A stretch of 64,000 nucleotides of DNA from an uncultured beta proteobacterium (GCA_903897925.1 CAIUDG010000136.1:15734-79733); one strand, 5' to 3'. Counted from the stretch's first letter, positions 14,947 to 63,900 are shown. Numbers and translations are program-made. Notes: generated by a model from the letters alone, not told the origin.

Positions 14947-16860
14947 TTAAACGCTAACCTGGCGTGTCACCGGCAGACGCAAGGTCAGGCGCGTGCCAGC
15001 CCGGCTGGAGTCCCAGCGTATTTCCGCGTCGATCGATTGGGCCCGACTGATCTGGTTGTTCAGCCCACGGCCCTTGTTGCGCAGTCCCTGGTCGACATCA
15101 AAGCCCTCGCCGTTGTCGGTGACGGTGACCAGCACATAATTGCGATCCACTGATGTGGCAACACGGATCTCGGTGGCCTGCGTGTGCTTGATGATGTTGG
15201 TGAATGCCTCTTGCAGGATACGCAGAATATGCAGTGCATTGCGCGGGTCCAGCCAGTCCAATGCCGGCACGTCCGCAATTTCCCAGCGCAGTGTCAGACC
15301 GGCGTTTTCCAGGCGCGGACCGAGGCGAAAGCGCAGCGTCGCCAGCAATAGCAACAAGTCGGCCTGTACCGGCTCCATTGCGTCAATTGCCAGCTTCAGG
15401 TCTTCGATGCAGCCTGTGAGTACGTCGGCCACCATGTCCGGATTGATGTCGCCCTTTTCGATTTCCAGCAAGGCGGTTCTCAAGGACGAGCCCATGCCGT
15501 CATGCATGTCCTGCATCATGCGCTGGCGTTCGTCGATCCGGGTCTGGCGCTGTGCTGCATCGTGCTGCAGGCGGTAAATCTGTTTCAATTCGGCTTCCCG
15601 AATCAGCAAGCGTTGCGCCAGACCGGCATTGACCTGTTTCACCTCGTCGATCGCGCCCATGTAGCGGCGAAAGATGATTTTTAAAAACAAGAGCAAGCCG
15701 ACCAGATTGGTATAGGGGCCGAGGTAAATGCCTTCAATGTCGATGTAGTTGCTTTGCAGCAACCAGTCATACAGCCACAGCAGCATGCCCAGCAGGCACC
15801 AGGCACTGAGCAGTGTGCCGTCCCTGGATTGGCTTTTGTGCGACTGGTAGAGGCCGACCAGCCCTACCGCGCTGCCCATCAGCATCAGGAATACATAGGC
15901 CAGTGGCGACAGCAAATAGATGCTTGGCACGGTGTCTAGCACGGGCAAGCTGATCAGGCTCAGGACCGAAGTTAGCAACAGCACGCCGCGATTCAATCGC
16001 AGCGAAGGCCGGCGGTGCAAATGGTTCAGAAAAAAGTGCAGCGCGGCAATCAGCCAGAACAGGGCGTTGACGGTCAGCCAGCTGAACCAGGCATCCGATA
16101 GCAACAGCTGGTGTTCTCCCACGTGGTAGTGCAGTGTGCGCAGAAATGTTGCGAGCGACACCAGAAAAAACAACAGGTACATGGGTTTCCGCCGCTGCCT
16201 GAGCCACAGGAATATGGAAAACAGGCCGATGCATAAAAAGGCCGTGCTGCTCATATAGGGCAGCTGGACCTGCAGCAAATAGCGCAAGTGGTAGCGCCAG
16301 CTCAGGCGCGCGCCTTGGCCCAGCCATAGCGTGGAAATGCCGCCGGCAGAATCGCGCGGACGCTCGATGCGAATCAGGATCACGTGCGGCGTGCCTGCGT
16401 TGGCGCTGCCGTCCATGGCGATCCACATCGGGATGTTCCAGCCGTTCCAGAAAATATTGGAGTGCGATTGGTAGACCAGTCGATTGTCTGCATACACCGC
16501 AATCTGGCCATCGGTTTTCCAGCGCGGTATGTAGAGGTAGCGTGGGCCGCTCACTGGCGCCAGGGCGGGCAAGACCAGGCGGTACCAGTTCAGCAGGGTG
16601 GGCTCACTCAGAGGGGTGCGTTCCAGACTGGCCGGGACCAGCGGTTTGGTCAGCACATGGGGCAAGCTGACGCTGCTCCAGACCCCTGGTAGATCGGCCG
16701 CCTGCACTTCATAGGGCGGTGGCATATAACCCTGGGACTCGATCGACATCAGTTCGGCTTGGGTAATGTGCAGCGGCGTGTCGGCCCGCGCCAGCGGATG
16801 CCAGCAGGCGCCGCACAGCAACAGCATTAGCCCGACCCAGCGTAGCGCCCGCTCAGGCAT
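14947..16860 (-). CDS. Sensor histidine kinase, 7TMR-DISM type (extracellular domain + 7 TM + HisKA_3 + HATPase)
   Basis: The start MPERAL (16860) overlaps the regulator's stop as ATGCCTGA. There are seven hydrophobic helices. The H-box is MQDMHDGMGSSL. The ATPase segment is VTDNGEGF...GRGLNN. Confidence 0.85.
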   Translation of the reverse strand: MPERALRWVGLMLLLCGACWHPLARADTPLHITQAELMSIESQGYMPPPYEVQAADLPGVWSSVSLPHVLTKPLVPASLERTPLSEPTLLNWYRLVLPALAPVSGPRYLYIPRWKTDGQIAVYADNRLVYQSHSNIFWNGWNIPMWIAMDGSANAGTPHVILIRIERPRDSAGGISTLWLGQGARLSWRYHLRYLLQVQLPYMSSTAFLCIGLFSIFLWLRQRRKPMYLLFFLVSLATFLRTLHYHVGEHQLLLSDAWFSWLTVNALFWLIAALHFFLNHLHRRPSLRLNRGVLLLTSVLSLISLPVLDTVPSIYLLSPLAYVFLMLMGSAVGLVGLYQSHKSQSRDGTLLSAWCLLGMLLWLYDWLLQSNYIDIEGIYLGPYTNLVGLLLFLKIIFRRYMGAIDEVKQVNAGLAQRLLIREAELKQIYRLQHDAAQRQTRIDERQRMMQDMHDGMGSSLRTALLEIEKGDINPDMVADVLTGCIEDLKLAIDAMEPVQADLLLLLATLRFRLGPRLENAGLTLRWEIADVPALDWLDPRNALHILRILQEAFTNIIKHTQATEIRVATSVDRNYVLVTVTDNGEGFDVDQGLRNKGRGLNNQISRAQSIDAEIRWDSSRAGTRLTLRLPVTRQVSV

Positions 16861-17560
16861 CCAGCAGGCCCTGGTAGCGCGCCTCAAAGATGGCTTCGGC
16901 CTTGGAGCTGACTTCCAGTTTGCTGTAAATACGACGGACAAAGGTCAGTACCGTGTGCCGCGTTACCGACATCAGTGCGGCTATTTCGTCGGACGTAAAG
17001 CCTTTGGTGATGAACTCCAGCACCTGTTGTTCGCGCGCCGACAGGGCCGCGCGCGGCTTGCCCTGGGCCGCTGTTACAGAAATCGCCACCGGCTTTTCCT
17101 GCCGCCGAAAGCGCATCAGGATCTGTCGCGCTATGAGCGGACTGATAGGGCTGCCGCCGGCGTGCAGGCTGCGGATTTCGTTCAGCATGCTGTGCGCAGT
17201 ACTGTCCTTGAGCAAATAGCCGGCGGCACCGGCTTCCAGCGACTGCATGACGTGCATTTCGTCGCCAAACGCGGTGCAGACCATGATGCCGCAGGCCGGC
17301 CATTGGGCATGGGCGGCGCGAATCACGTCAATGCCGGAGCCGTCGGGCAGACCCAGGTCGACCAGCAGCACATCCACCAGCGCGCCCTTGAGCGCCTGCA
17401 AGCCCTGTGCCCGTGTGCTGGACACTGATAGCAAGGCCATATCCGGGGCGCCATCAATGGCATCGCGCAGCGCCTGTTGGAAATAGACGTCGTCTTCAAC
17501 GAGTGCGACGCGGATAGAGGGAGCGGCTGATTTGGCATGCATGGCGGCCAATAGTGCCAT
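16853..17560 (-). CDS. NarL/LuxR-family response regulator
   Basis: REC domain (RVALVEDD..., DVLLVDLGLPDGSG) plus a LuxR HTH (LSAREQQVLEFITKGFTSDEIAALMSVTRHTVLTFVRRIYSKLEV). The start could instead be 17542. Confidence 0.85.
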   Translation of the reverse strand: MALLAAMHAKSAAPSIRVALVEDDVYFQQALRDAIDGAPDMALLSVSSTRAQGLQALKGALVDVLLVDLGLPDGSGIDVIRAAHAQWPACGIMVCTAFGDEMHVMQSLEAGAAGYLLKDSTAHSMLNEIRSLHAGGSPISPLIARQILMRFRRQEKPVAISVTAAQGKPRAALSAREQQVLEFITKGFTSDEIAALMSVTRHTVLTFVRRIYSKLEVSSKAEAIFEARYQGLLDA

Positions 17561-17679
17561 ATATGCGCAAAGCTGCGCCCGCTGCCTATTTGTCGCTTTG
17601 TCCCTAGTTCTTGTGACAGGGCGAATATTTCTGCAACTGACAATCGAAAAGTAACTAATTGCCCAGTCAAGGACTATCC

Positions 17680-20600
17680 ATGAAAAGCCACGCCTCTATG
17701 AACCGCATCTATCGCCTCGTCTGGAACCAAGCGCTTGGGGTGCTGGTGGCGGTGGCAGAAAATGCCAAGGGCCGGGGCAAGTCCAGCAGCAGCCGTGGCC
17801 TGGTGGCCGGCGCCTTGGCGCTGACCGGGGGCCTGTTTCTGGCGCCCTTTGCCCAGGCCGGGCCGACCGGTGGACAGGTCAGTGCCGGTGCCGGCACCAT
17901 TGTCCAGTCTGGCGTGAGTACCACGATCAACCAAAGCAGCCAGAACCTGGCCATCAACTGGCAAGGTTTTAGCATTGCCGCCAACGAGTCGGTGCGCTTT
18001 AACCAGCCGAATGCCGCGTCGGTGGCGCTGAACCGCGTTGTCGGTCAGGACCCGAGCCAGATTCTGGGCACCCTGAGTGCCAATGGCCAGGTATTCGTGC
18101 TCAATCCGAATGGCGTGCTATTCGGTGCTAGCGCGCAGGTGAGTGTCGGTGGCCTGGTGGCGTCGACCCTGGCCTTGAGCGATGCCGACCTGATGGCGAA
18201 TAGCTATACCTTCAATAGCAGCGGCGCCAGTGCCGGGCGCAGTGTCACCAACCAGGGCAGCCTGAGCGCGGCGCAGGGCGGCTATATTGCCCTGCTGGCA
18301 CCGGAAGTGCGCAACGAAGGCGTGATCGTCGCCCAACGCGGCACAGCGCTGCTGGCCGCCGGCGACAAGGTTACGCTGAAACTGGACAACGGCAGCCTGC
18401 TGTCTTACACCATCGACCAGGGCGCCATCAACGCACTGGCGGACAACCAGCAACTGGTACAGGCCGATGGCGGCCAGGTTTTGATGTCGGCCAAGGCCGC
18501 CAATGCGCTGACCACTGCGGTGGTGAACAACAGCGGCATTGTGCAGGCGCAGACGGTGCAAAACGTGGGCGGTGTGATCCGCTTGCTGGGTGATATGGAA
18601 ACCGGCAGCGTCAACGTCGGCGGCACGCTGGACGCCAGCGCGCCGGCCGGTGGCAACGGTGGTCTGGTGGAAACCTCGGCGGCGCATGTCAAGGTCGCCA
18701 GCGATGCCAAAGTAACGACACTGGCGGCGCATGGGCTGAATGGCACCTGGCTGATTGATCCGGTGGATTTCACGATTGCCGCCAGCGGTGGCGACATGAC
18801 CGGTGCCGTGTTGAGTAGCAACCTGGCGGGTGGCGACATCATTATTCAAAGCAGTTCGGGCACCATTGGCGGCACTGCGGGTGCGGTGAATGTGAACGAC
18901 GCCGTGAGCTGGGCCGCCAACAAACTGACCTTGAACGCGCAAGGAAATATCAATATCAACGCGGCCATGACGGCCACCGGTGGCGCCAGCCTGGCCTTGC
19001 AATTCGGGCAGGGCGCTATTGCATCGGGCAATCGAAGCAGCGTGGTGTTCGGTACCGCCGGCGTGGTGAGTTTGCCCGCCAGCAGCACCAACTTCAGCAC
19101 CACCCAGGGTTCGGACGGTGTGGCGGTGGCTTATACAGTGATCACCAGCCTGGGCCAGGCCGGCAGCACAACGACGACCGACTTGCAGGGCATGGCGGGT
19201 AATCTGGCGGGAAATTATGTGCTGGGGGCCGATATTGATGCGTCTGCCACTGCGGCATGGAATTCCACTTATGGCAGCTATGCGGGTTTTGCTCCGGTGG
19301 GCTCCTCATACACAAACGGAAACCGATTTCTCGGTATTTTTGATGGTCTTGGTCACAGCATCAGCAACCTGACTGTCAATCAGCCAAACACCAATTACGT
19401 TGGCATGTTTGGTAACACCGGATATGAATCGCAGATTCGCAATGTGTCACTGATCAATGCGAACGTCAGCGGTGGCTGGATAGTGGGCGCCTTGGTCGGT
19501 GGTGGCTATGGCACGATTACAAACGCCCACTCTAGCGGCACTGTCACCGGCAATGGAAGTTATATCGGTGGTTTGGCCGGACTCAATGGCGGGTCACTCA
19601 GCAACTCATCGTCTACCGCAACCGTGAACGCTACCGGCGGCACCTGGACCTATGACGTGGGCGGTCTGGTTGGGTTGAATGATTCTCCGATCAGCAACAG
19701 CCATGCATCCGGTGTCGTGAATGCTTCAGGCTATAACGCGGGCGGTTTGGTGGGCAACAACTACGGCACTGTCAGCAATAGTTATGTGAATGGTGGTTCC
19801 GTGTCTGCCTACCAAGGGGGCGGCGGTCTGGTCGGTAACAACGGTGGTACGGTCAGCAATTCGCATTACGATATCGACGCAGTCAGCATCAATGGCGCCA
19901 CTGGCACGGTGTCGGCGAATGGACTTTTTAATACCAACGGTGTCGGCCAGTTCAATCAGTGGATGAGCACCGGCACGCTGGATATTGCCAATTACAGCGC
20001 AAGCTTGCCCGGTAGCGGCAACAGTTACACCATTAGCAGCGTGCAGGGCATCAAGGACATGCTCGGATTTGCCGACAACCCTGCCTACACCTTCACGCTG
20101 GCAAACAACCTCACTTTGTCGGCAGGTTTGTTTATTCCTTATTTGGCAGGTACCTTTGACGGTGGAAACTACACCATTTCCGGCTTCAACCTCAGTGGCG
20201 GCAGCAAGATCGGCCTGATTGGCGTTGCCGCCTCGAGCGCCACCATCAAGAACGTGGTTCTAACCGGAGGCATCGTGAGTGGTGGCAGTTATGTGGGGGC
20301 GCTGGTGGGTGTGAATAATGGCTCCATCAGCAACAGTTCCTCCAGCAATGGCACTGTCAGCGGCAGCGGATACGATGTTGGTGGCTTGGTTGGACTCAAC
20401 AACTACTCGGCATCAATTACCAATAGTTTTGCCAACGGAAGCGTCACCGGTTCGCTGCCTTCCGTGAGCGGTGTCGGCGGCCTGGTGGGACGAAATTACG
20501 GCACCGTTAACAGCAGCCATGCCTCCGGCAGCGTGTCGGGAAGTTATGGCGTCGGCGGCCTGGTCGGTTTTTCCGGCGGCGGCTCGATCAACAACAGTTA

Positions 20601-23600
20601 CGTGAGCAGTAGCACCGTGGTGGGTGACACCAATGTCGGCGGATTGACCGGTGGCAACAATGGCACATTGAGCAATTCGCACTATGACATCGATGGAGTT
20701 TCCATCAACGGCGGCACTGCGGCCGGTCCCGGTGGACTGTATAACACCGCCGGCACCGGTCAGTACTACGACTGGATGAGCAACGGTACGCTGTCGATTG
20801 CGAACTATGCATCCACTCTGCCGGGCAGTGGCAATAGCTACACCATCAGCAGCGTGCAGGGCATGAAGGATTTGCTCGGGTTTGCCGACAATGCGTCCTA
20901 TACCTTCAATTTGGCCAACAATCTGGACCTCGCGAGTGCGCCTGGTTTGTATATCCCAAGCTTCGCAGGAACCTTTAATGGTGCTGGGCATACGATTTCC
21001 AACCTCAATCTGCTTGTCTCAAGCAGCAACCAGGGAATGTTTGGTGTTACCGCCAGTGGCGCAGTCATTGTCAACCTGGGCCTGATCAATGACAGCGTGG
21101 TTGGGCAGGATCGTGTCGGCGGAATGGTTGGAACCAACAACGGTAGCGTCAGCAACAGCTATGCCTCAGGCGGTGTGGTCGGCGCCGGCAGCTATGTGGG
21201 GGGGCTGGTGGGCAATAACCAGGGCACCATCAGTAATAGCTACACCACGGGCACTGTCAGTAGCGCGAATGGTGGTGGCAATCGCGTGGGTGGACTGGTC
21301 GGGGAAAGCGATCATTCTGGGGTGATCAGCAATAGTTACTCCAGCGCCGATACGAGTGGCGCCTACTATGCCGGCGGCCTGGTAGGACTCAACTATGGCA
21401 GCGTCAGCAACAGTTATGCCATGGGCCATGTGAGCACGGGCTATGGCAGTGGTGGACTGATTGGGTATAACGGGTCCAGTAGCGTGACCAACAGCTTCTG
21501 GGATACAGAGACATCGGGCATGTCCAGCTCGGCAGCGGGCGTCGGCATGACGACCGCGCAGATTCAAACATCGGCCAGTTTCAATACGGCGACCGCGGCC
21601 AACGGCAATGTCAATCCGAACTGGGATATGGCCGGTACCTGGATCGTTTATGACGGCCATACGGCGCCGCTGCTGCGCTCGTTTATGACCCCCCTGACGG
21701 TGTCGGCGGGCGATTCCACCACCGCCTATATCGGACAGAACTATGCTGTCAGCGGCGTGAACTATTCGGTGGTTCCGAACGCCAATTTGCTGGGTGCTCT
21801 GTTTGACGGCGCGTGGAATGTCGGTACCTACACCATGGGCGGACTGTATTCGAACCAGCAAGGCTACATCATCAGCTATGGCGCCGGCTCGTTGACCATC
21901 AACAAGGCCGACCTGACCCTGGTCGGTTCGCGCGCCTATGACGGAACGACCATCGTCGCCGGCAGTGTTCTGACGGCGGTTGGGGCCAACAATGAAACCT
22001 TTGCCGTCACCGGTGCGGGTGACGCCAGCAATCTGACCGTTAAAAACGCGCAGACCGGCAGCCCATTGGCGAGTCTGACCGGTCTGACCCTGGGCAGCAG
22101 CAGTAACGGTGGCGTGTCCAGCAACTACAACGTTCTGACCACAGTCGGCAGTGCGGTGGACATCAACAAAGCCAACGCCACGGTAACGGCGAACAGCGAC
22201 ACCAGCAAGGTCTATAACGGTCTGAGCCAGTCGGTCAGCGGTTACACCGTGAGCGGCCTGGTGAATGGCGAGACGGCAGCAGTGCTGACCGGCGTCAGCG
22301 CCGGCGGCTCCGGCACCAATGCCGGAAGTTATGCGACAACGGCCACCGGTACCGACAGCAATTACAACCTGAGCTTCGTGAATGGCACCCTGACCATCAG
22401 CAAAGCCAACGCCACGGTAACGGCGAACAGCGACAGCAGCAAGGTCTACAACGGCCTGAGTCAATCGGTCAGTGGCTTCAGCGCCAGCGGGCTGGTGAAC
22501 GGCGAGACCACGGCGGTGCTGAGCGGCGTCAGCGCAGGCGGCTCCGGTACCAATGCTGGCAGCTACACGACCACGGCCACCGGCACCGACAACAACTACA
22601 ACCTGAGCTTCGTCAACGGCAACCTGACTATCAGCAAAGCCAATGCCACCGTCACGGCGAACAGTGACAGCAGCAAGGTCTACAACGGTTTGCGTCAATC
22701 GGTCAGCGGCTTCAGCGCCAGCGGACTGGTGAATGGCCAGACCACGGCGGTGTTGAGCGGCGTCAGCGCAGGCGGCTCCGGCACCAATGCCGGCAGCTAC
22801 ACGACCACGGCGACCGGTAGCGACAGCAACTACAACCTGAGTTTCGTCAATGGCACCCTGACCATCAGCAAAGCCAACGCCACCGTCACGGCAAACAGCG
22901 ACAGCAGCAAGGTCTACAACGGTCTGAGCCAATCGGTTAGCGGCTTTACTGCCAGCGGGCTGGTGAACCACCAGACCACAGCGGTGCTGACCGGTGTCAG
23001 CGCAGGCGGCGCGGGCACCAATGCCGGCAGCTACACGGCTACGGCCACCGGTACCGACAGCAACTACAACCTGAGTTTCGTCAACGGCACCCTGACCATC
23101 AGCAAAGCCAACGCCACGGTGACGGCCAATAGCGACAGCAGCAAGGTCTACAACGGCTTGAGCCAATCGGTCAGCGGCTTCAGCGCCAGCGGACTGGTGA
23201 ATGGCCAGACCACGGCGGTGCTGACCGGCGTCAGCGCAGGCGGCTCCGGTACCAATGCCGGCAGCTATACGACTACGGCCACCGGTACCGACAGCAACTA
23301 CAACCTGAGTTTCGTCAACGGTAACCTGACTATTGCGCAGGCACATCTGACCGTGACCGCTGGCAATGAAACGCGTACCTACGGCAATGCCAACCCGGTG
23401 CTGACGGAAACCGTGAGTGGTTTCGTCAACGGCCAGACCCTGGCCACTTCCGGCGTCACCGGTACCGCCACCGGTACTACCACGGCGACTTCCAGCACAC
23501 CGGTGGGGGTGGCGGTGATTGCTGCCAATGCCACCGGCTTGCATGCCAATAACTATGACTTCAGCAATCTGGTAAACGGCAGCTTGACCATTACGGCGCC

Positions 23601-23874
23601 TCCGATCAATGCCCCGGGTGTTCCGCTGCTGGTTGTCAACGCTATCTCGAACTTGACCGGTGCAATCAATACCAGTCTGGTAGAGGTCTATCTGGCAGCG
23701 ATTGTGGATTACAACCCGGTGGCGCTGCAGGCAAGCAGTGCGCCCAACCCGACACCGCACCATGACCCGCGCAGCAGTATTGCGGTGCACCCAGAAAACC
23801 TAATGCCAGGCACCTTGGTCATAGTGATAAACGGCGGCATCAAGATGCCGAGCGACCTGCTTGCTCAAGAATAA
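17680..23874 (+). CDS. Two-partner-secretion exoprotein (TpsA / filamentous-haemagglutinin-like), about 2060 aa
   Basis: AAGGA lies 7 nt before the ATG at 17680. The extended signal peptide is MNRIYRLVWNQALGVLVAVAE plus a second hydrophobic stretch ending AQA. The TPS domain shows NLAINWQGFSI and VLNPNGVLFG. The centre has three modules of about 270 aa, rich in GGLVG (GLUG-type) motifs. Seven YDG/MBG-type repeats follow, then a unique roughly 100-aa C-terminus. Confidence 0.9.
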   Translation: MKSHASMNRIYRLVWNQALGVLVAVAENAKGRGKSSSSRGLVAGALALTGGLFLAPFAQAGPTGGQVSAGAGTIVQSGVSTTINQSSQNLAINWQGFSIAANESVRFNQPNAASVALNRVVGQDPSQILGTLSANGQVFVLNPNGVLFGASAQVSVGGLVASTLALSDADLMANSYTFNSSGASAGRSVTNQGSLSAAQGGYIALLAPEVRNEGVIVAQRGTALLAAGDKVTLKLDNGSLLSYTIDQGAINALADNQQLVQADGGQVLMSAKAANALTTAVVNNSGIVQAQTVQNVGGVIRLLGDMETGSVNVGGTLDASAPAGGNGGLVETSAAHVKVASDAKVTTLAAHGLNGTWLIDPVDFTIAASGGDMTGAVLSSNLAGGDIIIQSSSGTIGGTAGAVNVNDAVSWAANKLTLNAQGNININAAMTATGGASLALQFGQGAIASGNRSSVVFGTAGVVSLPASSTNFSTTQGSDGVAVAYTVITSLGQAGSTTTTDLQGMAGNLAGNYVLGADIDASATAAWNSTYGSYAGFAPVGSSYTNGNRFLGIFDGLGHSISNLTVNQPNTNYVGMFGNTGYESQIRNVSLINANVSGGWIVGALVGGGYGTITNAHSSGTVTGNGSYIGGLAGLNGGSLSNSSSTATVNATGGTWTYDVGGLVGLNDSPISNSHASGVVNASGYNAGGLVGNNYGTVSNSYVNGGSVSAYQGGGGLVGNNGGTVSNSHYDIDAVSINGATGTVSANGLFNTNGVGQFNQWMSTGTLDIANYSASLPGSGNSYTISSVQGIKDMLGFADNPAYTFTLANNLTLSAGLFIPYLAGTFDGGNYTISGFNLSGGSKIGLIGVAASSATIKNVVLTGGIVSGGSYVGALVGVNNGSISNSSSSNGTVSGSGYDVGGLVGLNNYSASITNSFANGSVTGSLPSVSGVGGLVGRNYGTVNSSHASGSVSGSYGVGGLVGFSGGGSINNSYVSSSTVVGDTNVGGLTGGNNGTLSNSHYDIDGVSINGGTAAGPGGLYNTAGTGQYYDWMSNGTLSIANYASTLPGSGNSYTISSVQGMKDLLGFADNASYTFNLANNLDLASAPGLYIPSFAGTFNGAGHTISNLNLLVSSSNQGMFGVTASGAVIVNLGLINDSVVGQDRVGGMVGTNNGSVSNSYASGGVVGAGSYVGGLVGNNQGTISNSYTTGTVSSANGGGNRVGGLVGESDHSGVISNSYSSADTSGAYYAGGLVGLNYGSVSNSYAMGHVSTGYGSGGLIGYNGSSSVTNSFWDTETSGMSSSAAGVGMTTAQIQTSASFNTATAANGNVNPNWDMAGTWIVYDGHTAPLLRSFMTPLTVSAGDSTTAYIGQNYAVSGVNYSVVPNANLLGALFDGAWNVGTYTMGGLYSNQQGYIISYGAGSLTINKADLTLVGSRAYDGTTIVAGSVLTAVGANNETFAVTGAGDASNLTVKNAQTGSPLASLTGLTLGSSSNGGVSSNYNVLTTVGSAVDINKANATVTANSDTSKVYNGLSQSVSGYTVSGLVNGETAAVLTGVSAGGSGTNAGSYATTATGTDSNYNLSFVNGTLTISKANATVTANSDSSKVYNGLSQSVSGFSASGLVNGETTAVLSGVSAGGSGTNAGSYTTTATGTDNNYNLSFVNGNLTISKANATVTANSDSSKVYNGLRQSVSGFSASGLVNGQTTAVLSGVSAGGSGTNAGSYTTTATGSDSNYNLSFVNGTLTISKANATVTANSDSSKVYNGLSQSVSGFTASGLVNHQTTAVLTGVSAGGAGTNAGSYTATATGTDSNYNLSFVNGTLTISKANATVTANSDSSKVYNGLSQSVSGFSASGLVNGQTTAVLTGVSAGGSGTNAGSYTTTATGTDSNYNLSFVNGNLTIAQAHLTVTAGNETRTYGNANPVLTETVSGFVNGQTLATSGVTGTATGTTTATSSTPVGVAVIAANATGLHANNYDFSNLVNGSLTITAPPINAPGVPLLVVNAISNLTGAINTSLVEVYLAAIVDYNPVALQASSAPNPTPHHDPRSSIAVHPENLMPGTLVIVINGGIKMPSDLLAQE
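22168..23337 (+). repeat. Five head-to-tail, near-identical 234-bp (78-codon) repeats inside tpsA
   Basis: Repeat units start with AAAGCCAA(C/T)GCC at 22168, 22402, 22636, 22870 and 23104, an exact 234-nt period. Each encodes KANATVTANSDsSKVYNGLsQSVSGF.ASGLVN..T.AVL.GVSAGGSGTNAGSYTTTATGtDsNYNLSFVNG.LTIS. Diverged copies flank both sides. Confidence 0.9.
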
Positions 23875-23893: not shown

Positions 23894-25579
23894 ATGAACA
23901 AGCCCAACATCAAGCTCTCTTTCGTCACCCTGGCCGTGCTGGCCTGCGCCAATGCACTGGCGGCACCACCGGTGCCGGACGCCGGTCAGATCAGCCGTGA
24001 CCTGCAAAATCAACCCGATCTGACAGCGCCCAAGTCGGTCGCGCCGTTGCGTGTCGAGGGGCAGGCGCTGCCACCTGGTGCGAAGTCCGGTGATATACGC
24101 TTTGCCGTCAAGACCCTGCACGTGACGGGCAGCAGCGCATTCAGCGCCCAGGAACTGGAAGCGCTGGTGCAAGATTTGGCGGGCGCCGAGCACAGTCTGG
24201 CCGAGCTGACAGCTGGCGCCGGTCGCATTACTGCCTATTACCGTGCGCATGGCTTTGTGGTGGCGCGCGCCTACTTGCCGGCGCAAGATATCAAAGACGG
24301 CATGGTCGTTATTCATGTGCTGGAAGGCGTGCTCGATCAAAAGCGCCTGAGCAATAAATCGGACCTGTCGGACGACCAGGTCAACCGCTATTTCGCCGAT
24401 CTGAAAAGTGGTGAACCGATCAATTCCAACCAGGTCGATCGCGCCTTGCTGCTGCTGTCGGATGCGCCCGGTGTGGGGGCAGCGCGCGCTGCCTTGCAGC
24501 CTGGCGCCAGTGTCGGCAGTGCCGACCTGCTGCTGGAGCTGGACCCGGCCCAGCCCTATGCTGCAAACCTCGAATTCGACAATTATGGCAACCGTTATAC
24601 CGGCGAATACCGCGCCGGCGCGGCGCTGGTGCTGAACAACCCGCTTCGGCTGGGCGATCTGGCCAGTGTGCGTCTTACCACCAGTGGTCCGGACATGACT
24701 TATGCCCGCGTCGCCTACCAGGTGCCTGTGGGCATGCGTGGCCTTAAAGTCGGTGTTGCCTATTCCGATACCGGTTATCGGTTGGGCCAGGAGTTTGACT
24801 CCCTGCAGGCGCATGGCACCGCCGACAGCGTCAGCCTGTACGCCACCTACCCGCTGCAGCGCAGCCAGCTCAGCAATTTGTCTTGTACCGTGAGCTGGGA
24901 GGGCAAGAAGCTGGTCGATCAAACCGACACCGTGGCGAACTCTACCGTCAGCAAGCAAGTGGATTTGCTGACCTTGGGTCTGACCGGCAGCCAGCAGGAT
25001 GCCTTCTGGGGTGGTGGCCTGACCGGCTTTGATGTGGCCTTGATCGGCGGTAGCCTGTCGATGGATGCTGCCTCGCTGGCACTGGATACGGCGGCAGGTT
25101 CCAGCTTCACTGATGGCTCGTTCAGCAAGCTGACGTATAGCGTGAATCGGCAGCAGCGTGTGAACGACAAATACAGCATGTTGCTGGCGCTGTCGGGCCA
25201 GCAGGCGAGCAAAAATCTGAACTCATCGGAAAAATTCTCGCTCGGCGGTGCCAATGGCGTGCGCGCCTATCCCCAGGGTGAAGCCAGCGGCGACGACGGC
25301 ATTTTGGCCAGCCTGGAAGCGCGCCGCAGTGTGAACGAGCAGATCCAGGCGGTGCTGTTTTACGACGCGGGACAGGTGGATACCAATCGCAATCCCTATG
25401 GCGTAGTGGCGGCCGCCAATACCCGTTTCATTTCGGGTGCCGGCTTCGGATTGAACGGTGCCATTGGCAAGCTGCAATTCAAGTCTTCGCTGGCCTGGAT
25501 TACCAGCGGCGGCGACCCGGTATCGGATACCGCCAACCGTACGCCGCGTCTGTGGTTTCAGTTAAGCTTGCCGCTTTAA
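23894..25579 (+). CDS. TpsB outer-membrane transporter (ShlB/FhaC/HecB family)
   Basis: Start placed at MNKPNIKLSFVTLAVLACANALA, a signal peptide. The POTRA region is TLHVTGSSAFSAQELEALV...YYRAHGFVVARAYLPAQDI.DG.V.I.VLEG. The C-terminal half looks like a beta-barrel. It begins 19 nt after the tpsA stop. Confidence 0.9.
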   Translation: MNKPNIKLSFVTLAVLACANALAAPPVPDAGQISRDLQNQPDLTAPKSVAPLRVEGQALPPGAKSGDIRFAVKTLHVTGSSAFSAQELEALVQDLAGAEHSLAELTAGAGRITAYYRAHGFVVARAYLPAQDIKDGMVVIHVLEGVLDQKRLSNKSDLSDDQVNRYFADLKSGEPINSNQVDRALLLLSDAPGVGAARAALQPGASVGSADLLLELDPAQPYAANLEFDNYGNRYTGEYRAGAALVLNNPLRLGDLASVRLTTSGPDMTYARVAYQVPVGMRGLKVGVAYSDTGYRLGQEFDSLQAHGTADSVSLYATYPLQRSQLSNLSCTVSWEGKKLVDQTDTVANSTVSKQVDLLTLGLTGSQQDAFWGGGLTGFDVALIGGSLSMDAASLALDTAAGSSFTDGSFSKLTYSVNRQQRVNDKYSMLLALSGQQASKNLNSSEKFSLGGANGVRAYPQGEASGDDGILASLEARRSVNEQIQAVLFYDAGQVDTNRNPYGVVAAANTRFISGAGFGLNGAIGKLQFKSSLAWITSGGDPVSDTANRTPRLWFQLSLPL

Positions 25580-25597: not shown

Positions 25598-26419
25598 ATG
25601 GCTAAATTTGTAGGGGTAACAGGCTTGCCCCGCGCAGGCTCGACCCTGTTGTGTCAATTGCTGGCACAGCATCCGGAGATCCACTGCGAAGGCAGCAGCA
25701 GTCCGCTCTGCAATACCTTGCTGGGCATCCGCCGCATGGTCAGCGACGACCAGTTTTTTCTGTCCCAGCTCGATAGCACTTTTGAGAGCAGCTACGCCCA
25801 TCTGGCGTCGGCGATGCAGGGCTATCTGCGTGGCTGGCACCACGATTGCCAGAAGCCGGTGGTGGTGGACAAAAACCGCGCCTGGCTGCATGCGGTGGAG
25901 CTGCTACTGCACATTGAGCCTGAGGCCAAGCTGATTGTGTGTCTGCGCGACCTGGGGCAAATATACGGCTCCATTGAGGCCCAGCACCAGCGCACGATCC
26001 TGATAGATTTCATTGACCACTTGGCCGACTACGACCGCTTCGGTCGCGCCGATGTGTTGTTTGCCAAAGACAAGGCGATTGGCGCGCCGCTGGTGTCCCT
26101 GCACGCGGTGCCAGACTTGCCCAAGCAGGTTCAGGAGCGCCTGTATTTTGTGCGTTTTGAAGACCTGATGGCGCAGCCCGCAGCGTGTATGTCACATGTC
26201 TATCAATGGCTGGGCGTATCGCCCCTCACTATCAACACCCAGCAACTGGAAGTCGGTGTGCAGGAGAGTGACAGCCACTACCACATGAAGTACACGCACA
26301 AGCAGGCGACGCGTATCGCGCCGCCCAAGCGCCACGACATACCGGCGCGGATTCAGACGCTGATAGAAACCGCCTACGCCTGGTACTACCAGCTTTACTA
26401 TCCGCAGCAGAAGAAATGA
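25598..26419 (+). CDS. Cytoplasmic PAPS-dependent sulfotransferase, tyrosylprotein-sulfotransferase-like
   Basis: The 5'-PSB loop is GLPRAGSTLLCQLLAQHPEIHCEG. The 3'-PB segment is KLIVCLRDLGQIYGSIEAQ. A later segment is YFVRFEDLMAQP......WLGV. No signal peptide. It begins 18 nt after the tpsB stop, preceded by GGGGAAG. Confidence 0.8.
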   Translation: MAKFVGVTGLPRAGSTLLCQLLAQHPEIHCEGSSSPLCNTLLGIRRMVSDDQFFLSQLDSTFESSYAHLASAMQGYLRGWHHDCQKPVVVDKNRAWLHAVELLLHIEPEAKLIVCLRDLGQIYGSIEAQHQRTILIDFIDHLADYDRFGRADVLFAKDKAIGAPLVSLHAVPDLPKQVQERLYFVRFEDLMAQPAACMSHVYQWLGVSPLTINTQQLEVGVQESDSHYHMKYTHKQATRIAPPKRHDIPARIQTLIETAYAWYYQLYYPQQKK

Positions 26420-27054
26420 AGCCGCCCGTGGCCCATAGCGGCAATCTGGTCTGGCAGGGCAGCGCAGTGAGTCGTGCACAGCACCAGCTGGATGCCGGAC
26501 ACCGGGGTGCGGTGGTCTGGCTGACCGGATTGCCGGGCTCGGGAAAATCCACCATTGCGCGTGGTGCGCAGCTGCAGTTGCAGCAGTTGGGCTATCGCAC
26601 GGCGCTGCTCGATGGTGACAATTTGCGCCACGGTCTGTGTGCCGATTTGGGCTTTTCGCTGGCGGATCGCAATGAAAATGTGCGCCGCACGGGCGCTGTG
26701 GCCAAGTTGTTTCTGGACACCGGGGTGCTGGTGTTGGTGGCACTGGTGTCGCCGCTGCAGGCCGCGCGTGCGGCGGTGCGGCAGTCTGTGCCGGCGGGTG
26801 ATTTTCTGGAAGTTCACTGCCAGTGCCCGGTCACGGTGTGCCGGGCGCGTGACCCGAAAGGCCATTACGCCCAGGCCGAACGCGGCAGTATTGCCGATTT
26901 CACCGGCGTGTCATCGCCCTATGAGGCGCCGCTGCAGCCCGACCTGTGTCTGGCCACCGGGCTGGAGCCGGTGCAGGCCTCGGTGGCGCAGCTGCTGGCG
27001 CTGATCCAGGCGCGCAACCCGCTAGTGCGCGGCAAGATTCTCCCGCAGATGTAA
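26416..27054 (+). CDS. cysC: Adenylyl-sulfate (APS) kinase
   Basis: The ATGA overlap with the sulfotransferase stop is at 26416-26419. The P-loop is VVWLTGLPGSGKSTIA. The signature LDGDNLRHGL..DLGFS..DR.ENVRR is present. Confidence 0.9.
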   Translation: MKPPVAHSGNLVWQGSAVSRAQHQLDAGHRGAVVWLTGLPGSGKSTIARGAQLQLQQLGYRTALLDGDNLRHGLCADLGFSLADRNENVRRTGAVAKLFLDTGVLVLVALVSPLQAARAAVRQSVPAGDFLEVHCQCPVTVCRARDPKGHYAQAERGSIADFTGVSSPYEAPLQPDLCLATGLEPVQASVAQLLALIQARNPLVRGKILPQM

Positions 27055-30929: not shown

Positions 30930-33002
30930 ATGATCACACTCACGGTAAATGGCCGTACGGTTGCGTTGAACGAGGGGGCCTCCCTGCTGGAGGCGATCCA
31001 CCTGGCCGGGGTGCATGTGCCCACTTTGTGCCACCATCCGCGGCTGCCGGCGCAAGGCGTGTGTCGCATGTGCCTGGTCGAGGTGGCGGGTGAAGCCCGG
31101 CCGCAACCGGCCTGTGCCACCCCAGCCCAGGCGGGGGCGGTGATCAACACCGATTCGGAGGCGCTGCAGGCGTTTCGCAAGGTCAATGCGCAATGGTTGC
31201 TGGCGCGCCATCCGAATGCATGCATGCACTGCGAAGCCCAGAGTGCCTGCAGATTGCAAAGCCTGGTCGGCGAGAACCAGTGGGAAGACTGCTGGGAAAA
31301 AATCCCGCGCGGTGCGCCGGAACAGCCGCAGCACCTGCTGCTGGACCATACCTCGCCGAGCATCTGGCGCGATCTGGACAAGTGCGTCGAATGTGGTCTG
31401 TGTGTGGCTGCCTGCGGCGCGCCGGGCCAGCAGCAAAATATTATCGGCTTTGCCGAGCGCGGCTCGGATCGCTTGCTGGTGACGGTGTTTGACCAGTCGC
31501 TGGCGGACACCCCTTGCATCTCCTGCGGCCAATGCACGCTGGTGTGTCCCACCGGCGCCCTGATAGAAACGCCACACTGGCATGCGGTGCTGCATACCCT
31601 GGACGCGCACCGCCGTGTATCTGCGGTGCAGGTGGCGCCGGCGACGCGTATTGCGATCAGTGAAGAGTTTGGCATGAAGCCTGGCACTGTCAGCACCGGG
31701 CGCATGATCAATGCGCTGCGGCAACTCGGTTTTGACTATGTGTTTGATACCAATTTCGCGGCCGACCTGACCATCATGGAAGAAGGCACCGAGTTGCTGG
31801 CGCGGCTCGGTAAGCGGGAGCATTTGCCGCTCTTCACGTCCTGCTGTCCGGCTTGGGTGAACTGGGTCGAGATCCACCGGCCGGATTTGCTGGCGCACCT
31901 GAGCACCAGCAAATCACCGCAGCAAATGCATGGCGCCATCACCAAGCGCGGCGCCTTCGCGCGGGCGTTGGGGCCAGCGTTCGCCAGCGGTGAGGCCGAG
32001 CCCTATGTGGTCAGCGTTATGCCTTGTACCGCCAAAAAGGACGAGGCCGCGCGGCCGGGGATGGCGGGCGATGTGGACCATGTGCTGACCACGCGGGAGC
32101 TGGCAAAAATGATCCGCGCGCGCGGCATTGCCTTCAGTGCCTTGTCCGAAGACGCGGCGTTTGACCAGCCCCTGGGGGAAAGCACCGGTGCGGCGCAGAT
32201 ATTCGGCGCCTCCGGTGGAGTCATGGAAGCGATGGTGCGCACCGGCGCGCATTTGCTCGGCGCCGCCAGCGATTTTCCGCTGGAGTGGCAGCAACTGCGC
32301 GGCGTTGCCCAGGGCCTGAAGACGGCCGATATTCCGGGACTCGGCCGGGTGGCTATTTGCAATGGCATTGCCGCTGCGCAACGCTTGTTGCAGACCGAGG
32401 ACTGGCGCCAGGACTATGTGGCGATCGAGGTCATGGCCTGCGTTGGTGGTTGCCTGGGCGGTGGTGGCGAGCCGAAATCGATGGACCCGCAGATTCTGCA
32501 GCAGCGCATGCAGGCCATTTACGCGGTGGACCAGCAGGCCAGTCGCCGCTGCGCGCATGAAAACCAGGACGTGCAGAAGCTGTACGCCAATGAGTTGCAG
32601 GCGCCGAATTCGGCGCAGGCGCATGCCTTGCTGCACACCAGTTATGCGGCGCGCCATTCGGAGCGGCTGTTTTTGATGCGCTTTCTCGATGCCGTGGACC
32701 GCCGCGATGGCGCCGCCGCTGCGGCACTGTTTCTGCCCGATGCCTGCTGGTCCACGGCCTCGGTCTTCGGTACGGTCCAGGGGGCCGCGCAGATCGAGGC
32801 GCTGATCAATACGCGCCTGCCGCCGCGCAAGCAGGGGCCCGAATATGCGCGCCACCGGATGCTGCACGCCGCTGCGCTGGACGATCTTACGGTGCTGACT
32901 CCGCAGGGCGAACGCTGCCGCTTCCAGCTTGCGCTGGGGCGCTTGCCAGGTGCCGCCGGGCAGCCGCTGCGCATCCGTCGGCTGCAGCGCGAAGTGCTCT
33001 GA
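30930..33002 (+). CDS. [FeFe]-hydrogenase-like protein (M3-type F-cluster N-terminus + H-cluster domain) with an extra C-terminal domain
   Basis: AAGGAG lies 8 nt upstream of the start. The 2Fe-2S Cys pattern is CHHP...CRMCLVEV...C. The His-ligated cluster is HPNACMHCEAQSAC. Two 4Fe-4S motifs are CVECGLCVAAC and CISCGQCTLVCP. The H-cluster signatures are FTSCCPAW, MPCTAKKDE and EVMACVGGCLGGGGEP. A small-subunit-like segment (HENQDVQKLY...LLHTSY) follows, then a roughly 115-aa extension. Confidence 0.8.
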   Translation: MITLTVNGRTVALNEGASLLEAIHLAGVHVPTLCHHPRLPAQGVCRMCLVEVAGEARPQPACATPAQAGAVINTDSEALQAFRKVNAQWLLARHPNACMHCEAQSACRLQSLVGENQWEDCWEKIPRGAPEQPQHLLLDHTSPSIWRDLDKCVECGLCVAACGAPGQQQNIIGFAERGSDRLLVTVFDQSLADTPCISCGQCTLVCPTGALIETPHWHAVLHTLDAHRRVSAVQVAPATRIAISEEFGMKPGTVSTGRMINALRQLGFDYVFDTNFAADLTIMEEGTELLARLGKREHLPLFTSCCPAWVNWVEIHRPDLLAHLSTSKSPQQMHGAITKRGAFARALGPAFASGEAEPYVVSVMPCTAKKDEAARPGMAGDVDHVLTTRELAKMIRARGIAFSALSEDAAFDQPLGESTGAAQIFGASGGVMEAMVRTGAHLLGAASDFPLEWQQLRGVAQGLKTADIPGLGRVAICNGIAAAQRLLQTEDWRQDYVAIEVMACVGGCLGGGGEPKSMDPQILQQRMQAIYAVDQQASRRCAHENQDVQKLYANELQAPNSAQAHALLHTSYAARHSERLFLMRFLDAVDRRDGAAAAALFLPDACWSTASVFGTVQGAAQIEALINTRLPPRKQGPEYARHRMLHAAALDDLTVLTPQGERCRFQLALGRLPGAAGQPLRIRRLQREVL

Positions 33003-61614: not shown

Positions 61615-63900
61615 ATGCCCATTGCAGCGGCGAGTGACTGGTACCGCCTGGCGGTTTCGCGTGTCGTCCTGTTGCTGATTGCCGTGTGGATTGGCCTGTC
61701 CTGGTTTGGCGCTTCGGTGTATAGCGCGCATCTTGCCGATCAGGCGTACCGCGAAGGCCATGGGCAAACTGAAAGGCAGCTCAATGCCCTGACCGAAGAA
61801 ATTGATGGTGCGCTCAAAACCTTGCGCAACGTGCCGCAGGTCTTGTCCAGTGAATCTGCGGTGCGCTCACAGTTGCAGAAGTTCGGTATTTCAACCCAGG
61901 CCTCGCCCCTGCCATATGCGCTGCGCAAGGAACGCTGGACCGAAGCCAGCCGGGCTTCCGGGCTGACCGACTTTTTGCAGTCCATGGCGATTGGCATGGA
62001 TGCGGATGTGATCTGGCTGGTGAATGCGGCCGGTGATTGCGTAGCCTCCAGCAATGCCAGCTCCGGCAATAGCTTTATTGGTACCAACTACAGTGAACGG
62101 GAGTATTTCCGACTAGCCGCGCACGGCCAGGTCGGCCAGCAATATGCGGTGGGCAAGGTCAGCCGCATTCCTGGTCTGTTTTACTCCTATCCGGTGCACG
62201 ACGACAAAGCGCAGTTTGTCGGCGCCGTGGTGGTGAAGCGTGATATATCCGGTTTTTCGCACTGGACGCGCTCCAACAACGCTTTCATCGCCGACTCCAA
62301 TGGGGTGGTGGTGCTAAGCGAAGATGCCGAACTGATGCTGCACCAGATGCCGGACTCCTCGTTTGAGCGCCTGCCCCGCGCCACCCGGCTGGAAAAGTAT
62401 TCCAAGGAGAACTTGCCGCGTGTGCTGATGACACCCTGGGACGCCGGCTCGCTTGCCGATGTCTACGCGTTTGGCGAGCCGCCCTTGCCCACGGTGCTGC
62501 TGTCACGCGCCGCTGCGGACGGCAATATCCGCATCTATTTGCCACATTCGGTATCCGAGCTATTGCGTGTGAGCGCCGAGAAGACCTGGATCTTCCTGCT
62601 CTGCGCTTTTGCCGGATCGATGTTGATCGTGGCCAGTTATTCCGGCGTGTTGTATTTTCGTGCCAGCCGCAACGCGCGTGAACATGCGGAAAGCGCCAAC
62701 CGGGAGAAGTCCCAGTTTCTGGCGAATATGTCGCACGAGATACGCACGCCTATGAACGGTGTGATCGGCATGGCGCACTTGCTGCAGGATACGCCGCTGA
62801 ACGCCGAGCAGCAGGGCTTTGTGCGCAATATTGTGGTGTCGGGCGAGTCCTTGCTGGCCATCATTAACGACATTTTGGACCTCTCCAAAATTGAATCCGG
62901 CAAGATGGAATACGAGTTCCACCCCATGTCGGTGCCGGACGTCATGGATTCGCTGGTGACTTTGCTGGGTCTGCGCGCCAAGGAAAAAGGCATCGCGCTG
63001 CGGCTGCAGATGGACCCGGCGGCGACAGCGCCGGTGCAGGGCGACAGCCAGCGCCTGCGCCAGGTGTTGCTGAACCTGATTGGCAACGCCATCAAGTTCA
63101 CAGAGCATGGCGGCGTTGACGTGGAGGTGACGCGCACGGTGAACCAATTGCGCTTTGAAGTGACCGACACCGGGATCGGCATTCCAGCGGACAAGCAGGT
63201 CAAGCTGTTTTCCAATTTCAGCCAGGTGGATGCCTCCACTTCCAGAAAGTTTGGTGGTACCGGGCTCGGTCTGGTGATCAGCAAGCGCCTGGTCGAAGGC
63301 ATGGGCGGCACGATCGGCGTGCGCAGCGCGGATGGCACGGGCAGCTGTTTCTGGTTTGAACTGCCTTGGACTGCGGCGGCAGCGGCACCGACGCAAACGC
63401 AGACGCAGACGCCCGTCGCAACGCTGCCGGCAGCCCCCACTACAAGCACAACCACAGCCAACTCAGCCACGGTAACTCCTCCAGCCACCACGCCGGCGCC
63501 AGACCGGGCTGCGCCGGGCGCCTCCCTCTTGCTGGTGGAAGACAACCGGATCAACCAGCAACTGGCGCTGGTGTTGATCAATCGCCTCGGCTATACCGCT
63601 GACCTGGCTGAAAACGGCATTCAGGCAGTGGCTGCGTCCGCCGCCAAACGCTATTCGGTGATTTTGATGGATATGCAAATGCCGGAGATGGACGGCTTGC
63701 AGGCGACCCAGGCAATTCGCAAAGATTGCCCGTACAACCAGACGACGCCCATCATTGCCCTCACGGCCAATGCCATGCAATCGGACCGCGATGCCTGCCA
63801 GGCGGCTGGAATGGATGATTTCCTGTCCAAGCCGTTTACGCGCCAGCAACTGGCCAGCTGCCTGGAGCGCTGGCTAGCGGTCAAGGCAAGTTCTGACTAG
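61615..63900 (+). CDS. Hybrid sensor histidine kinase/response regulator with a double-Cache periplasmic domain
   Basis: AAGGA lies 4 nt before the ATG at 61615. An alternative TTG is at 61597. The layout is TM, a roughly 290-aa periplasmic domain, then TM. The H-box is [14 protein letters not shown] and the G-box is [18 protein letters not shown] low-complexity linker follows. The REC domain shows [11 protein letters not shown] and [13 protein letters not shown]. Confidence 0.85.

Follow-up and report, generated by a model that had tools for sequence, protein, structure and literature searches.

The 64,000-nucleotide stretch of DNA analysed here (GCA_903897925.1, CAIUDG010000136.1:15734-79733, from an uncultured beta proteobacterium; referred to below as the window) contains a two-partner secretion (TPS) system, tpsA-tpsB, followed on the same strand by genes for a sulfotransferase (ST) and for an adenylyl-sulfate (APS) kinase, cysC, which would supply 3'-phosphoadenosine 5'-phosphosulfate (PAPS). 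The ST and its association with TPS systems are the subject of this analysis. The four genes are closely packed (Table 1). A gap of 19 nt separates the tpsA stop codon (23872-23874) from the tpsB ATG (23894), 18 nt lie between the end of the tpsB stop codon (25579) and the ST ATG (25598), and the ST stop codon and the cysC start codon share the sequence ATGA at 26416-26419 (-4 nt). An earlier reading of the locus from its sequence alone (the sequence-only reading) had described this spacing as operon-like, and its distances are all exact. A sequence scan of the plus strand found no promoter-like site and no convincing terminator between the four genes, and we infer that they are co-transcribed. 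The tpsA open reading frame extends upstream to a TTG at 17659, and its likely start is the ATG at 17680 (MKSHASMNRIYRLVWN, ESPR motif).

TpsA is roughly 2060 residues long and matches the Pfam families ESPR (E 3.4e-18), TPS (1.2e-38), Glug (four copies, 6e-30) and MBG_2 (six copies, 5e-48), and TpsB matches POTRA_2 (3.7e-19) and ShlB (5.1e-29). The MBG_2 repeats (22100-23300 in the window) are nearly identical in DNA, with a period of about 234 nt, and give rise to a ladder of hairpin-like 'terminator' matches on the minus strand (22176-22909), which are repeat artefacts. CysC matches the Pfam family APS_kinase (E 3.7e-58) and, in NCBIfam, PRK03846 (240.3 bits, cutoff 163) and TIGR00455 (214.8 bits, cutoff 138.7); its P-loop is GLPGSGKST (residues 38-46). 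The neighbours of cysC identified by Pfam and NCBIfam are tpsAB upstream and a hybrid histidine kinase followed by an [FeFe] hydrogenase downstream, and none of cysD, cysN and cysH was found beside it by the same searches of the window genes. The view that this cysC stands outside an assimilatory cys context is thus upheld.

Table 1. Genes of the TPS-sulfotransferase module and its surroundings, in window coordinates
Feature	Position	Strand	Domains and remarks
tpsA, secreted exoprotein	17680..23874	+	ESPR, TPS, GLUG motifs, beta-helical middle, six MBG_2 repeats
tpsB, outer-membrane Omp85-type transporter for TpsA	23894..25579	+	POTRA_2 + ShlB
ST, TPST-like sulfotransferase, predicted PAPS-dependent, 273 aa	25598..26419	+	PF13469
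cysC, adenylyl-sulfate (APS) kinase, predicted PAPS supplier	26416..27054	+	APS_kinase, PRK03846, TIGR00455
Hybrid histidine kinase, 1261 aa	27055-30840, likely ATG 27106	+	dCache, several PAS, HisKA, HATPase, receiver
LuxR/GerE-type response regulator	16853-17560	-	Divergent from tpsA
Histidine kinase	14947-16941	-	Divergent from tpsA
[FeFe] hydrogenase	30930-33002	+	Best NCBIfam match group A6

The sulfotransferase

The ST can be assigned to the Sulfotransfer_3 family (PF13469; 73.5 bits against a cutoff of 27, E 3.8e-20, residues 7-208). Both the sequence and a structural model open at once with beta-strand 1 and the 5'-phosphosulfate binding (5'-PSB) loop (MAKFVGVTGLPRAGST), with no hydrophobic N-terminal segment; the protein therefore lacks a signal peptide, as the sequence-only reading had stated, and should be cytoplasmic. 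The motifs expected of a PAPS-binding enzyme are invariant in a 50-sequence alignment that reaches down to 38% identity. These include G9, R12, G14, S15 and T16 of the 5'-PSB loop (GLPRAGST, residues 9-16), Lys92 (in DKNR), the 3'-phosphate binding (3'-PB) residues Arg117 and, eight residues further on, Ser125, and a C-terminal loop, ESDSHYHMKYTH (residues 223-234). Lys92 is aligned with the Lys of the NKD motif of tyrosylprotein sulfotransferases (TPSTs), which we take to be K158 of TPST2, and Arg117 is aligned with the corresponding TPST Arg. Since the 5'-PSB loop, Lys92 and Arg117...Ser125 are invariant, ST looks active. The three segments that had been quoted earlier as PAPS-binding and similar to TPSTs do align with TPST1 and TPST2 in HMMER.

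The relationship to TPSTs is also seen at the level of structure, where 'nearest' means nearest among solved structures, a set to which RaxST, NodH and LpsS do not belong. An AlphaFold2 model of ST made from the diverse 50-sequence alignment has a predicted local distance difference test score (pLDDT) of 91.5 and a predicted template modelling score (pTM) of 0.90. It replaced a first model built from 34 close homologues, which was poor (pLDDT 61), and the ranking of fold matches is identical for the two models. In a Foldseek search of the PDB, TPSTs occupy all of ranks 1-13 (E 6e-10 to 2e-8, 22-23% identity), followed by the CurM sulfotransferase domain (1e-7) and heparan 3-O-sulfotransferases (2e-7, 14-16% identity). 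Altogether, 54 PDB matches have E <= 1e-3, and the 50 listed comprise only sulfotransferases and the related retinol dehydratase. The template modelling scores (TM-scores) are alike across the sulfotransferase groups (0.52-0.65), and the fold margin for TPSTs is therefore modest. The profile margin is much wider: a profile of the ST family run against PDB sequences finds TPST1 (3e-14), TPST2 (3e-12) and a tick TPST (4.5e-11), then the CurM sulfotransferase (1e-6), Stf1 (1e-5) and Stf9 (2.6e-5), and does not detect the heparan sulfotransferases. Thus, the proposal that ST is TPST-like and not of a carbohydrate or lipid type is borne out among solved structures, both by profile (3e-14 versus 1e-6) and by the 13 top Foldseek ranks. 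We also considered that the gene behind tpsB might specify a CdiI-like toxin-immunity protein; this is rejected, as the gene encodes an intact, extremely conserved enzyme, whereas immunity proteins are highly variable.

Association with TPS loci and the wider family

A genome scan with one genome per species gave 231 matching stretches, of which the best 80 loci, 75-88% identical to ST, were kept and searched with the TPS proteins of the window; linkage was counted in the 40 loci that have at least 9 kb on both flanks. The kept loci are from Beta- and Gammaproteobacteria and include Rhodoferax, Collimonas, Gallionella, Methylobacter, Rhodanobacter, Dyella, Burkholderia, Janthinobacterium, Pararobbsia and Steroidobacteraceae. 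Across these two proteobacterial classes the mean column identity of ST is 84%, and the best 120 database matches to ST are 78-89% identical. A TPS system lies within 10 kb of ST in 34 of the 40 full-flank loci, with tpsB usually only 12-400 nt away. The genes occur in four orders: tpsA-tpsB-ST, as in the window; ST convergent with tpsB-tpsA; tpsB-tpsA-ST; and ST-tpsA-tpsB. The sequence-only reading had allowed that the gene might not be conserved next to TPS loci elsewhere; it clearly is, and the persistence of the adjacency through rearrangement argues for a functional tie. In addition, ST co-diverges with TpsB, the two sets of distances being correlated (Mantel r 0.475, p 5e-4), with ST diverging about 2.7 times more slowly (mean distance 0.21 versus 0.58 for TpsB).

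The association of ST with cysC is looser. In 26 of the 80 related loci cysC adjoins ST, either directly downstream or divergently, so that the pairing pointed out earlier is real but facultative. In Collimonas the unit comprises only cysC, ST, tpsB and tpsA, with unrelated metabolic genes on either side. Cultured Collimonas carriers of the module are sp. OK307, sp. OK242, C. humicola RLT1W51 and C. rhizosphaerae H4R21; other cultured carriers are Burkholderia sp. L27(2015), Pararobbsia silviterrae DHC34, Solimicrobium silvestre S20-91 and Actimicrobium sp. GrIS 1.19. Environmental metagenome contigs encode an identical ST protein in the same gene order as the window, and the module is not plasmid-borne in the plasmid collection that was searched. 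The association of ST with TPS systems is thus strong and broad, and it is unreported in the literature searched. The full-text searches gave no description of a sulfotransferase linked to two-partner secretion or to filamentous haemagglutinin-type, GLUG or repeats-in-toxin (RTX) adhesins; Xanthomonas papers and reviews among this literature mention RaxST and TPS adhesins, separately, and a Herbaspirillum paper contains the relevant terms in its references but nowhere else.

Individual loci show further variations. In a Methylobacter-type metagenome-assembled genome (MAG) (L001/L018, 11060-13783), ST and tpsB are separated by a gene for a 907-residue protein that combines YadA stalk motifs with 14 YadA-head repeats; this protein has no Pfam membrane-anchor match and resembles a trimeric-autotransporter passenger inside a TPS locus. 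In another locus (L004, 6891-13111), an intact ST (82% identical) lies beside degraded POTRA_2 and MBG_2 fragments of an apparently decaying TPS locus, and on its other flank is an ABC transporter of sulfate or molybdate type (two permeases, an ATPase and TOBE). A MAG labelled Aggregatilineales (Chloroflexota; L078) contains an ST that is 76% identical together with a cysC fragment, which may reflect a binning error or inter-phylum transfer.

The ST family extends down to about 30% identity and is not confined to TPS loci. A second branch, 45-50% identical to the window ST, is mostly cyanobacterial but also includes Marinicella and others, and it adjoins giant RTX/cadherin/Big proteins of, for example, 2269 and 1869 residues (HemolysinCabind, Cadherin_4/5, Big_9). 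In 80 loci of this branch from metagenomes, the genes directly beside ST code for a protein that is RTX-rich or at least 1000 residues long in 19 of 128 cases, compared with 4 of 154 genes that lie at least four positions away (odds ratio 6.5, p 3e-4). A third branch, of about 40% identity and 330 residues, includes an archaeal MAG and has a glycosyltransferase gene, GT9-like or GT25, directly after ST. In the archaeal MAG and marine metagenome contigs that represent this branch (L180-L185) the partner is GT9-like except in L182, where it is GT25; there, the pair lies amid giant proteins without a Pfam match (1490 residues, and 998 residues with BNR repeats). The archaeal MAG also has a short APS-kinase-like reading frame within 2 kb after the ST/GT9-like pair. 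The ST family, then, often accompanies large secreted repeat proteins, whatever their secretion route, given that the cyanobacterial-type branch adjoins RTX/cadherin/Big adhesins; in at least one branch, the partner is instead a glycosyltransferase. More distantly, the Ralstonia solanacearum megaplasmid encodes a sulfotransferase of 28% identity, together with a cysC, about 2 kb from a type VI vgrG cluster (L172, 5755-11585), and this pair has matches in 133 Ralstonia plasmid records.

Several genes around the window module merit mention. The likely ATG of the hybrid histidine kinase lies about 51 nt past cysC on the same strand, and this gene may share the transcript; a metagenome contig with an identical ST (L178) has the histidine kinase in the same order. 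It was rejected as a part of the module because it is not conserved beside ST in other genomes, where one substantial match (26%, L007) and short partial matches in four other loci were found. A kinase/receiver region that is 44% identical to it is found elsewhere in the window (62671-63876). The LuxR-type regulator and the kinase that are divergent from tpsA may regulate the TPS-sulfotransferase operon locally. The [FeFe] hydrogenase scores 634.7 bits against group A6, under the cutoff of 765, and is unusual both in carrying an extra C-terminal SnoaL-like domain (residues 581-654) and in occurring in an apparently betaproteobacterial window.

Candidate acceptors of the sulfotransferase

The occurrence of a TPST-like ST beside TPS adhesin genes in many Beta- and Gammaproteobacteria suggests that these adhesins are sulfated before export. 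In the reading that we favour, tpsA-tpsB-ST-cysC would form one module, consisting of a TPS system, a sulfotransferase as third partner and a dedicated APS kinase. CysC would convert APS to PAPS, and ST would use PAPS to O-sulfate hydroxyl groups, most likely those of Tyr, on the still-unfolded TpsA precursor in the cytoplasm. Such a precursor would suit ST because TPSTs bind extended peptides. Export of the modified TpsA would follow, first by Sec via the ESPR signal peptide and then by TpsB, and the resulting surface or secreted adhesin would be sulfated and more anionic. ST would thus be analogous to HMW1C and EtpC, each of which glycosylates its TpsA partner before secretion (in the cytoplasm for HMW1), and to RaxST, which sulfates RaxX before type I secretion. 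We put the probability that ST sulfates TpsA in the cytoplasm in this way, with cysC supplying PAPS, at about 0.45; the activity of ST, TpsA as its acceptor, Tyr as the residue and modification ahead of export are all inferred.

The TpsA sequences offer little guidance as to the site. Tyr residues in acidic context, which the sequence-only reading had put forward as acceptors, are a weak argument: acidic residues are scarce in TpsA (E 0.8%, D 3.1%), and none of its Tyr residues has at least three acidic residues and no basic residue within six positions on either side. Among the Tyr-containing motifs that it had listed, SNSHYDID is indeed duplicated (residues 733 and 1005). GQYYDW and TWTYDVGG, said to occur in every MBG repeat, are each found only once and outside these repeats, and TDSNYNL, of which the same had been said, has exactly three copies in a protein with six MBG_2 repeats. 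MBG repeats themselves are matched in only part of the ST-linked TpsAs. Six Tyr columns are conserved in 34 ST-linked TpsAs (Y209, Y492, Y520, Y709, Y737 and Y1227). Of these, Y209 alone discriminated the linked proteins from three unlinked TpsAs, but it was discarded as an ST-specific site because EtpA, which has no ST partner, has a Tyr there too. Y492, Y520 and Y709 fall in GLUG or beta-helix motifs that are also present in unlinked TpsAs; of the six positions, the joint alignment with the unlinked proteins allowed comparison of these three and Y209.

Related TPS loci on annotated plasmids show what else may occupy the position of ST. In Methylosinus trichosporium OB3b (plasmid pOB3b3; L174, 10442-16313), a GT41 enzyme of the HMW1C/OGT family is divergent from a GLUG-type TpsA gene that is disrupted by an insertion sequence (IS), and in Ensifer (L176) two GNAT acetyltransferases adjoin an MBG TpsA. 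A plasmid of Pannonibacter phragmitetus (L175, 2004-17438) has a GT4/GT1/ABC-transporter/FkbM-methyltransferase cluster divergent from tpsB and a YDG-type tpsA, and a related TPS locus of Comamonas has neither ST nor any other modifying enzyme. From these loci it would seem that third-partner enzymes of different kinds have been recruited by GLUG-type TPS systems. Since related loci show a GT41 enzyme, GNAT enzymes, a glycan cluster or no enzyme at all, ST is an accessory and not an obligatory component of GLUG/MBG/YDG-type TPS systems.

A number of these observations weigh against sulfation of TpsA by ST. The window TpsA has no classical acidic sulfation site, and no Tyr or motif specific to ST-linked TpsAs was found in the comparison of the 34 linked proteins with the three unlinked ones and EtpA; the Tyr of EtpA at the Y209 position, the Comamonas locus and the six of 40 full-flank loci without a TPS system nearby point in the same direction. 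The catalytic Glu of the TPST GE-E motif, which we take to be E99 of TPST2, falls in a column where ST has His or Ser (G32, H/S33 to S35 being aligned). An acidic residue two to three positions upstream (E/D31) is confined to the window clade; the cyanobacterial-type branch, with the consensus HPDIYSxGHSSPL, lacks it. The chemistry and the acceptor may therefore differ from those of TPSTs, and, with His or Ser in the catalytic Glu column, ST is not an orthodox TPST. Candidates for a catalytic base in ST are E31, E127, H130, E188, E223, D225 and H234. Moreover, Sulfotransfer_3 also includes sulfotransferases that act on carbohydrates and lipids, and the sole NCBIfam match of ST is to NoeE (E 3e-7, 29.5 bits against a cutoff of 500). 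The third branch of the family is coupled to glycosyltransferases, and the Pannonibacter cluster, possibly one for a sulfated glycan, holds two unrelated sulfotransferases.

Family membership with the weak NoeE match, the altered Glu column, the GT9-like and GT25 partners, the Pannonibacter cluster and the lack of acidic Tyr sites would all fit an alternative in which ST acts at the cytoplasmic face on a non-protein acceptor, such as a precursor of lipopolysaccharide (LPS) or exopolysaccharide (EPS), a glycolipid or a metabolite, and leaves TpsA unsulfated; so would the Wza/Wzc-like export genes that lie 7-10 kb upstream of ST in one cyanobacterial locus (L089). The sulfated product would then cooperate with the adhesin; it might, for example, alter surface charge or serve the lectin-like MBG/GLUG regions of the adhesin as a ligand or anchor at the cell surface. 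We consider this rather unlikely. A glycan-modifying enzyme would be expected in a glycan cluster and not near tpsB in four gene orders, and the unit in the window clade is limited to ST, tpsB and tpsA, with cysC as an optional addition. Genes for a glycosyltransferase, a flippase or polysaccharide export are absent from it in the window and in Collimonas, nor does the annotated locus L010, in which riboflavin genes are the two genes directly upstream of ST, contain glycosyltransferase or polysaccharide-export genes. In addition, TPSTs are the nearest relatives, by profile 7-8 orders of magnitude in E-value ahead of the next solved families, and the rhizobial plasmids that encode NodH and NoeE gave no match to ST at E 1e-3 in the plasmid collection.

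The similarity of ST to TPSTs would be equally consistent with another protein or peptide as acceptor, for instance TpsB, a nearby adhesin or a small RaxX-like peptide, the link to TPS being one of co-regulation or of a shared island. The YadA-type adhesin-like gene between ST and tpsB in the Methylobacter-type loci is one candidate, and the conservation of ST (75-88%) beside a variable TpsA would fit a more conserved acceptor. This alternative is improbable. With gaps of 19, 18 and -4 nt, the window module has no space for a gene encoding a precursor peptide, and no transporter of the raxAB-like, peptidase-containing ATP-binding (PCAT) type is present among the annotated neighbours. The sole recurring partners of ST are tpsB and tpsA: the six TPS-less loci have no second recurrent partner, their neighbours being an SNF2 helicase, GlnD, a GGDEF protein, CstA and others. 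As for TpsB, it is a folded outer-membrane barrel, and we know of no precedent for such a modification of one. Least probable of all, and by our estimate very improbable, is that the adjacency has no function, with ST hitch-hiking on a mobile TPS island or being an inactive or decaying enzyme. ST has a GC content of 0.583, a little lower than the 0.616 of the window, the L004 gene lies beside degraded TPS fragments, and the six loci without TPS would be explained. What argues against it is extreme purifying selection (84% mean column identity with all cofactor-binding residues invariant), adjacency through at least four gene orders across Beta- and Gammaproteobacteria, co-divergence with TpsB, and the absence of a transposase or integrase among the annotated window neighbours that flank the module.

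If TpsA is indeed the acceptor, then ST and its relatives would introduce a post-translational modification that is new for type V secretion, and would open up a large new class of candidate substrates for bacterial sulfation, well past RaxST and RaxX. It is possible, and we propose it only tentatively, that ST is the first example of a widespread, undescribed family of cytoplasmic protein sulfotransferases that are dedicated partners of giant adhesins, of the TPS type in Beta- and Gammaproteobacteria and of the RTX/cadherin, type I-secreted type in cyanobacteria and other taxa. Sulfated adhesins would in that case be common in environmental bacteria, and we offer the hypothesis that these bacteria tune the charge of their adhesins by sulfation; mineral or metal-oxide surfaces, fungal or plant hosts and cations are speculative candidates for the ligands. 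Were the acceptor a glycan or a lipid, there would still be a conserved and unexplained coupling of sulfation to TPS adhesins. Because cultured strains carry the module, the idea of sulfation is directly testable.

Comparison with known systems

Among carbohydrate sulfotransferases, NodH/NodPQ and NoeE of rhizobia are known to work with a dedicated PAPS supply, and the window module resembles them in combining a sulfotransferase with an APS-kinase function of its own and in the weak match of ST to NoeE. The resemblance does not go further: ST is far under the NoeE cutoff, the module contains no nod or glycan genes, and, among solved structures, TPSTs are nearer to ST than is any carbohydrate sulfotransferase. 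With TPST1 and TPST2 (EC 2.8.2.20), ST shares the GxPRxGST motif, an HP motif, the Lys of (D/N)K(N/D), the eight-residue spacing of RD...S and YE/FE-x-L. It differs from them in that it is predicted to be soluble and cytoplasmic, whereas TPSTs are type II membrane-anchored proteins of the Golgi lumen, and in having His or Ser in place of the catalytic Glu. The C-terminal third of ST, including the ESDSHYHMKYTH loop, has no counterpart in the HMMER alignments, and overall identity is about 22%.

In the literature searched, bacterial protein sulfation is characterised for RaxST, with RaxX and Omp1X as substrates. For its PAPS, RaxST relies on the raxPQ genes, to which the adjacent cysC would be the analogue here. 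RaxST of Xanthomonas oryzae sulfates a product that is then exported by a dedicated secretion system (PMC4646787, PMC6637879). The two systems differ in the cargo and its route: RaxX is a 60-residue precursor exported by type I secretion, whereas TpsA is a TPS exoprotein of about 2060 residues that would be exported by Sec and TpsB. Neither a raxX-like precursor gene nor a raxAB-like peptidase-containing transporter is present in the module or among its annotated neighbours.

The closest parallel in organization is to HMW1ABC of Haemophilus influenzae and EtpBAC of enterotoxigenic E. coli. In the literature searched, third-partner modification in two-partner secretion is N-glycosylation, by HMW1C and EtpC; sulfation with its own PAPS supply would be new as a third-partner chemistry for this pathway. 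HMW1C modifies HMW1 in the cytoplasm ahead of export (PMC3983070, PMC4550697), and EtpC, the modifying enzyme of the Etp system, is a product of the etpBAC operon (PMC11463764). As in these systems, a TpsA/TpsB pair is accompanied by an adjoining third gene for a modifying enzyme, which in the present case is conserved across many taxa, and among solved structures the TPS domain of the window is closest to that of EtpA (E 1.4e-60). The enzymes themselves are unrelated in kind: HMW1C and EtpC are N-glycosyltransferases of the GT41 family with a GT-B fold, whereas ST is a predicted PAPS-dependent Sulfotransfer_3 enzyme with a P-loop fold. The window module also adds a gene for cofactor supply, cysC, and the modification would be O-sulfation instead of N-hexosylation. 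As ST is not a GT41 enzyme, the module can be regarded as a variant of the HMW1ABC/EtpBAC type and not as a member of it.

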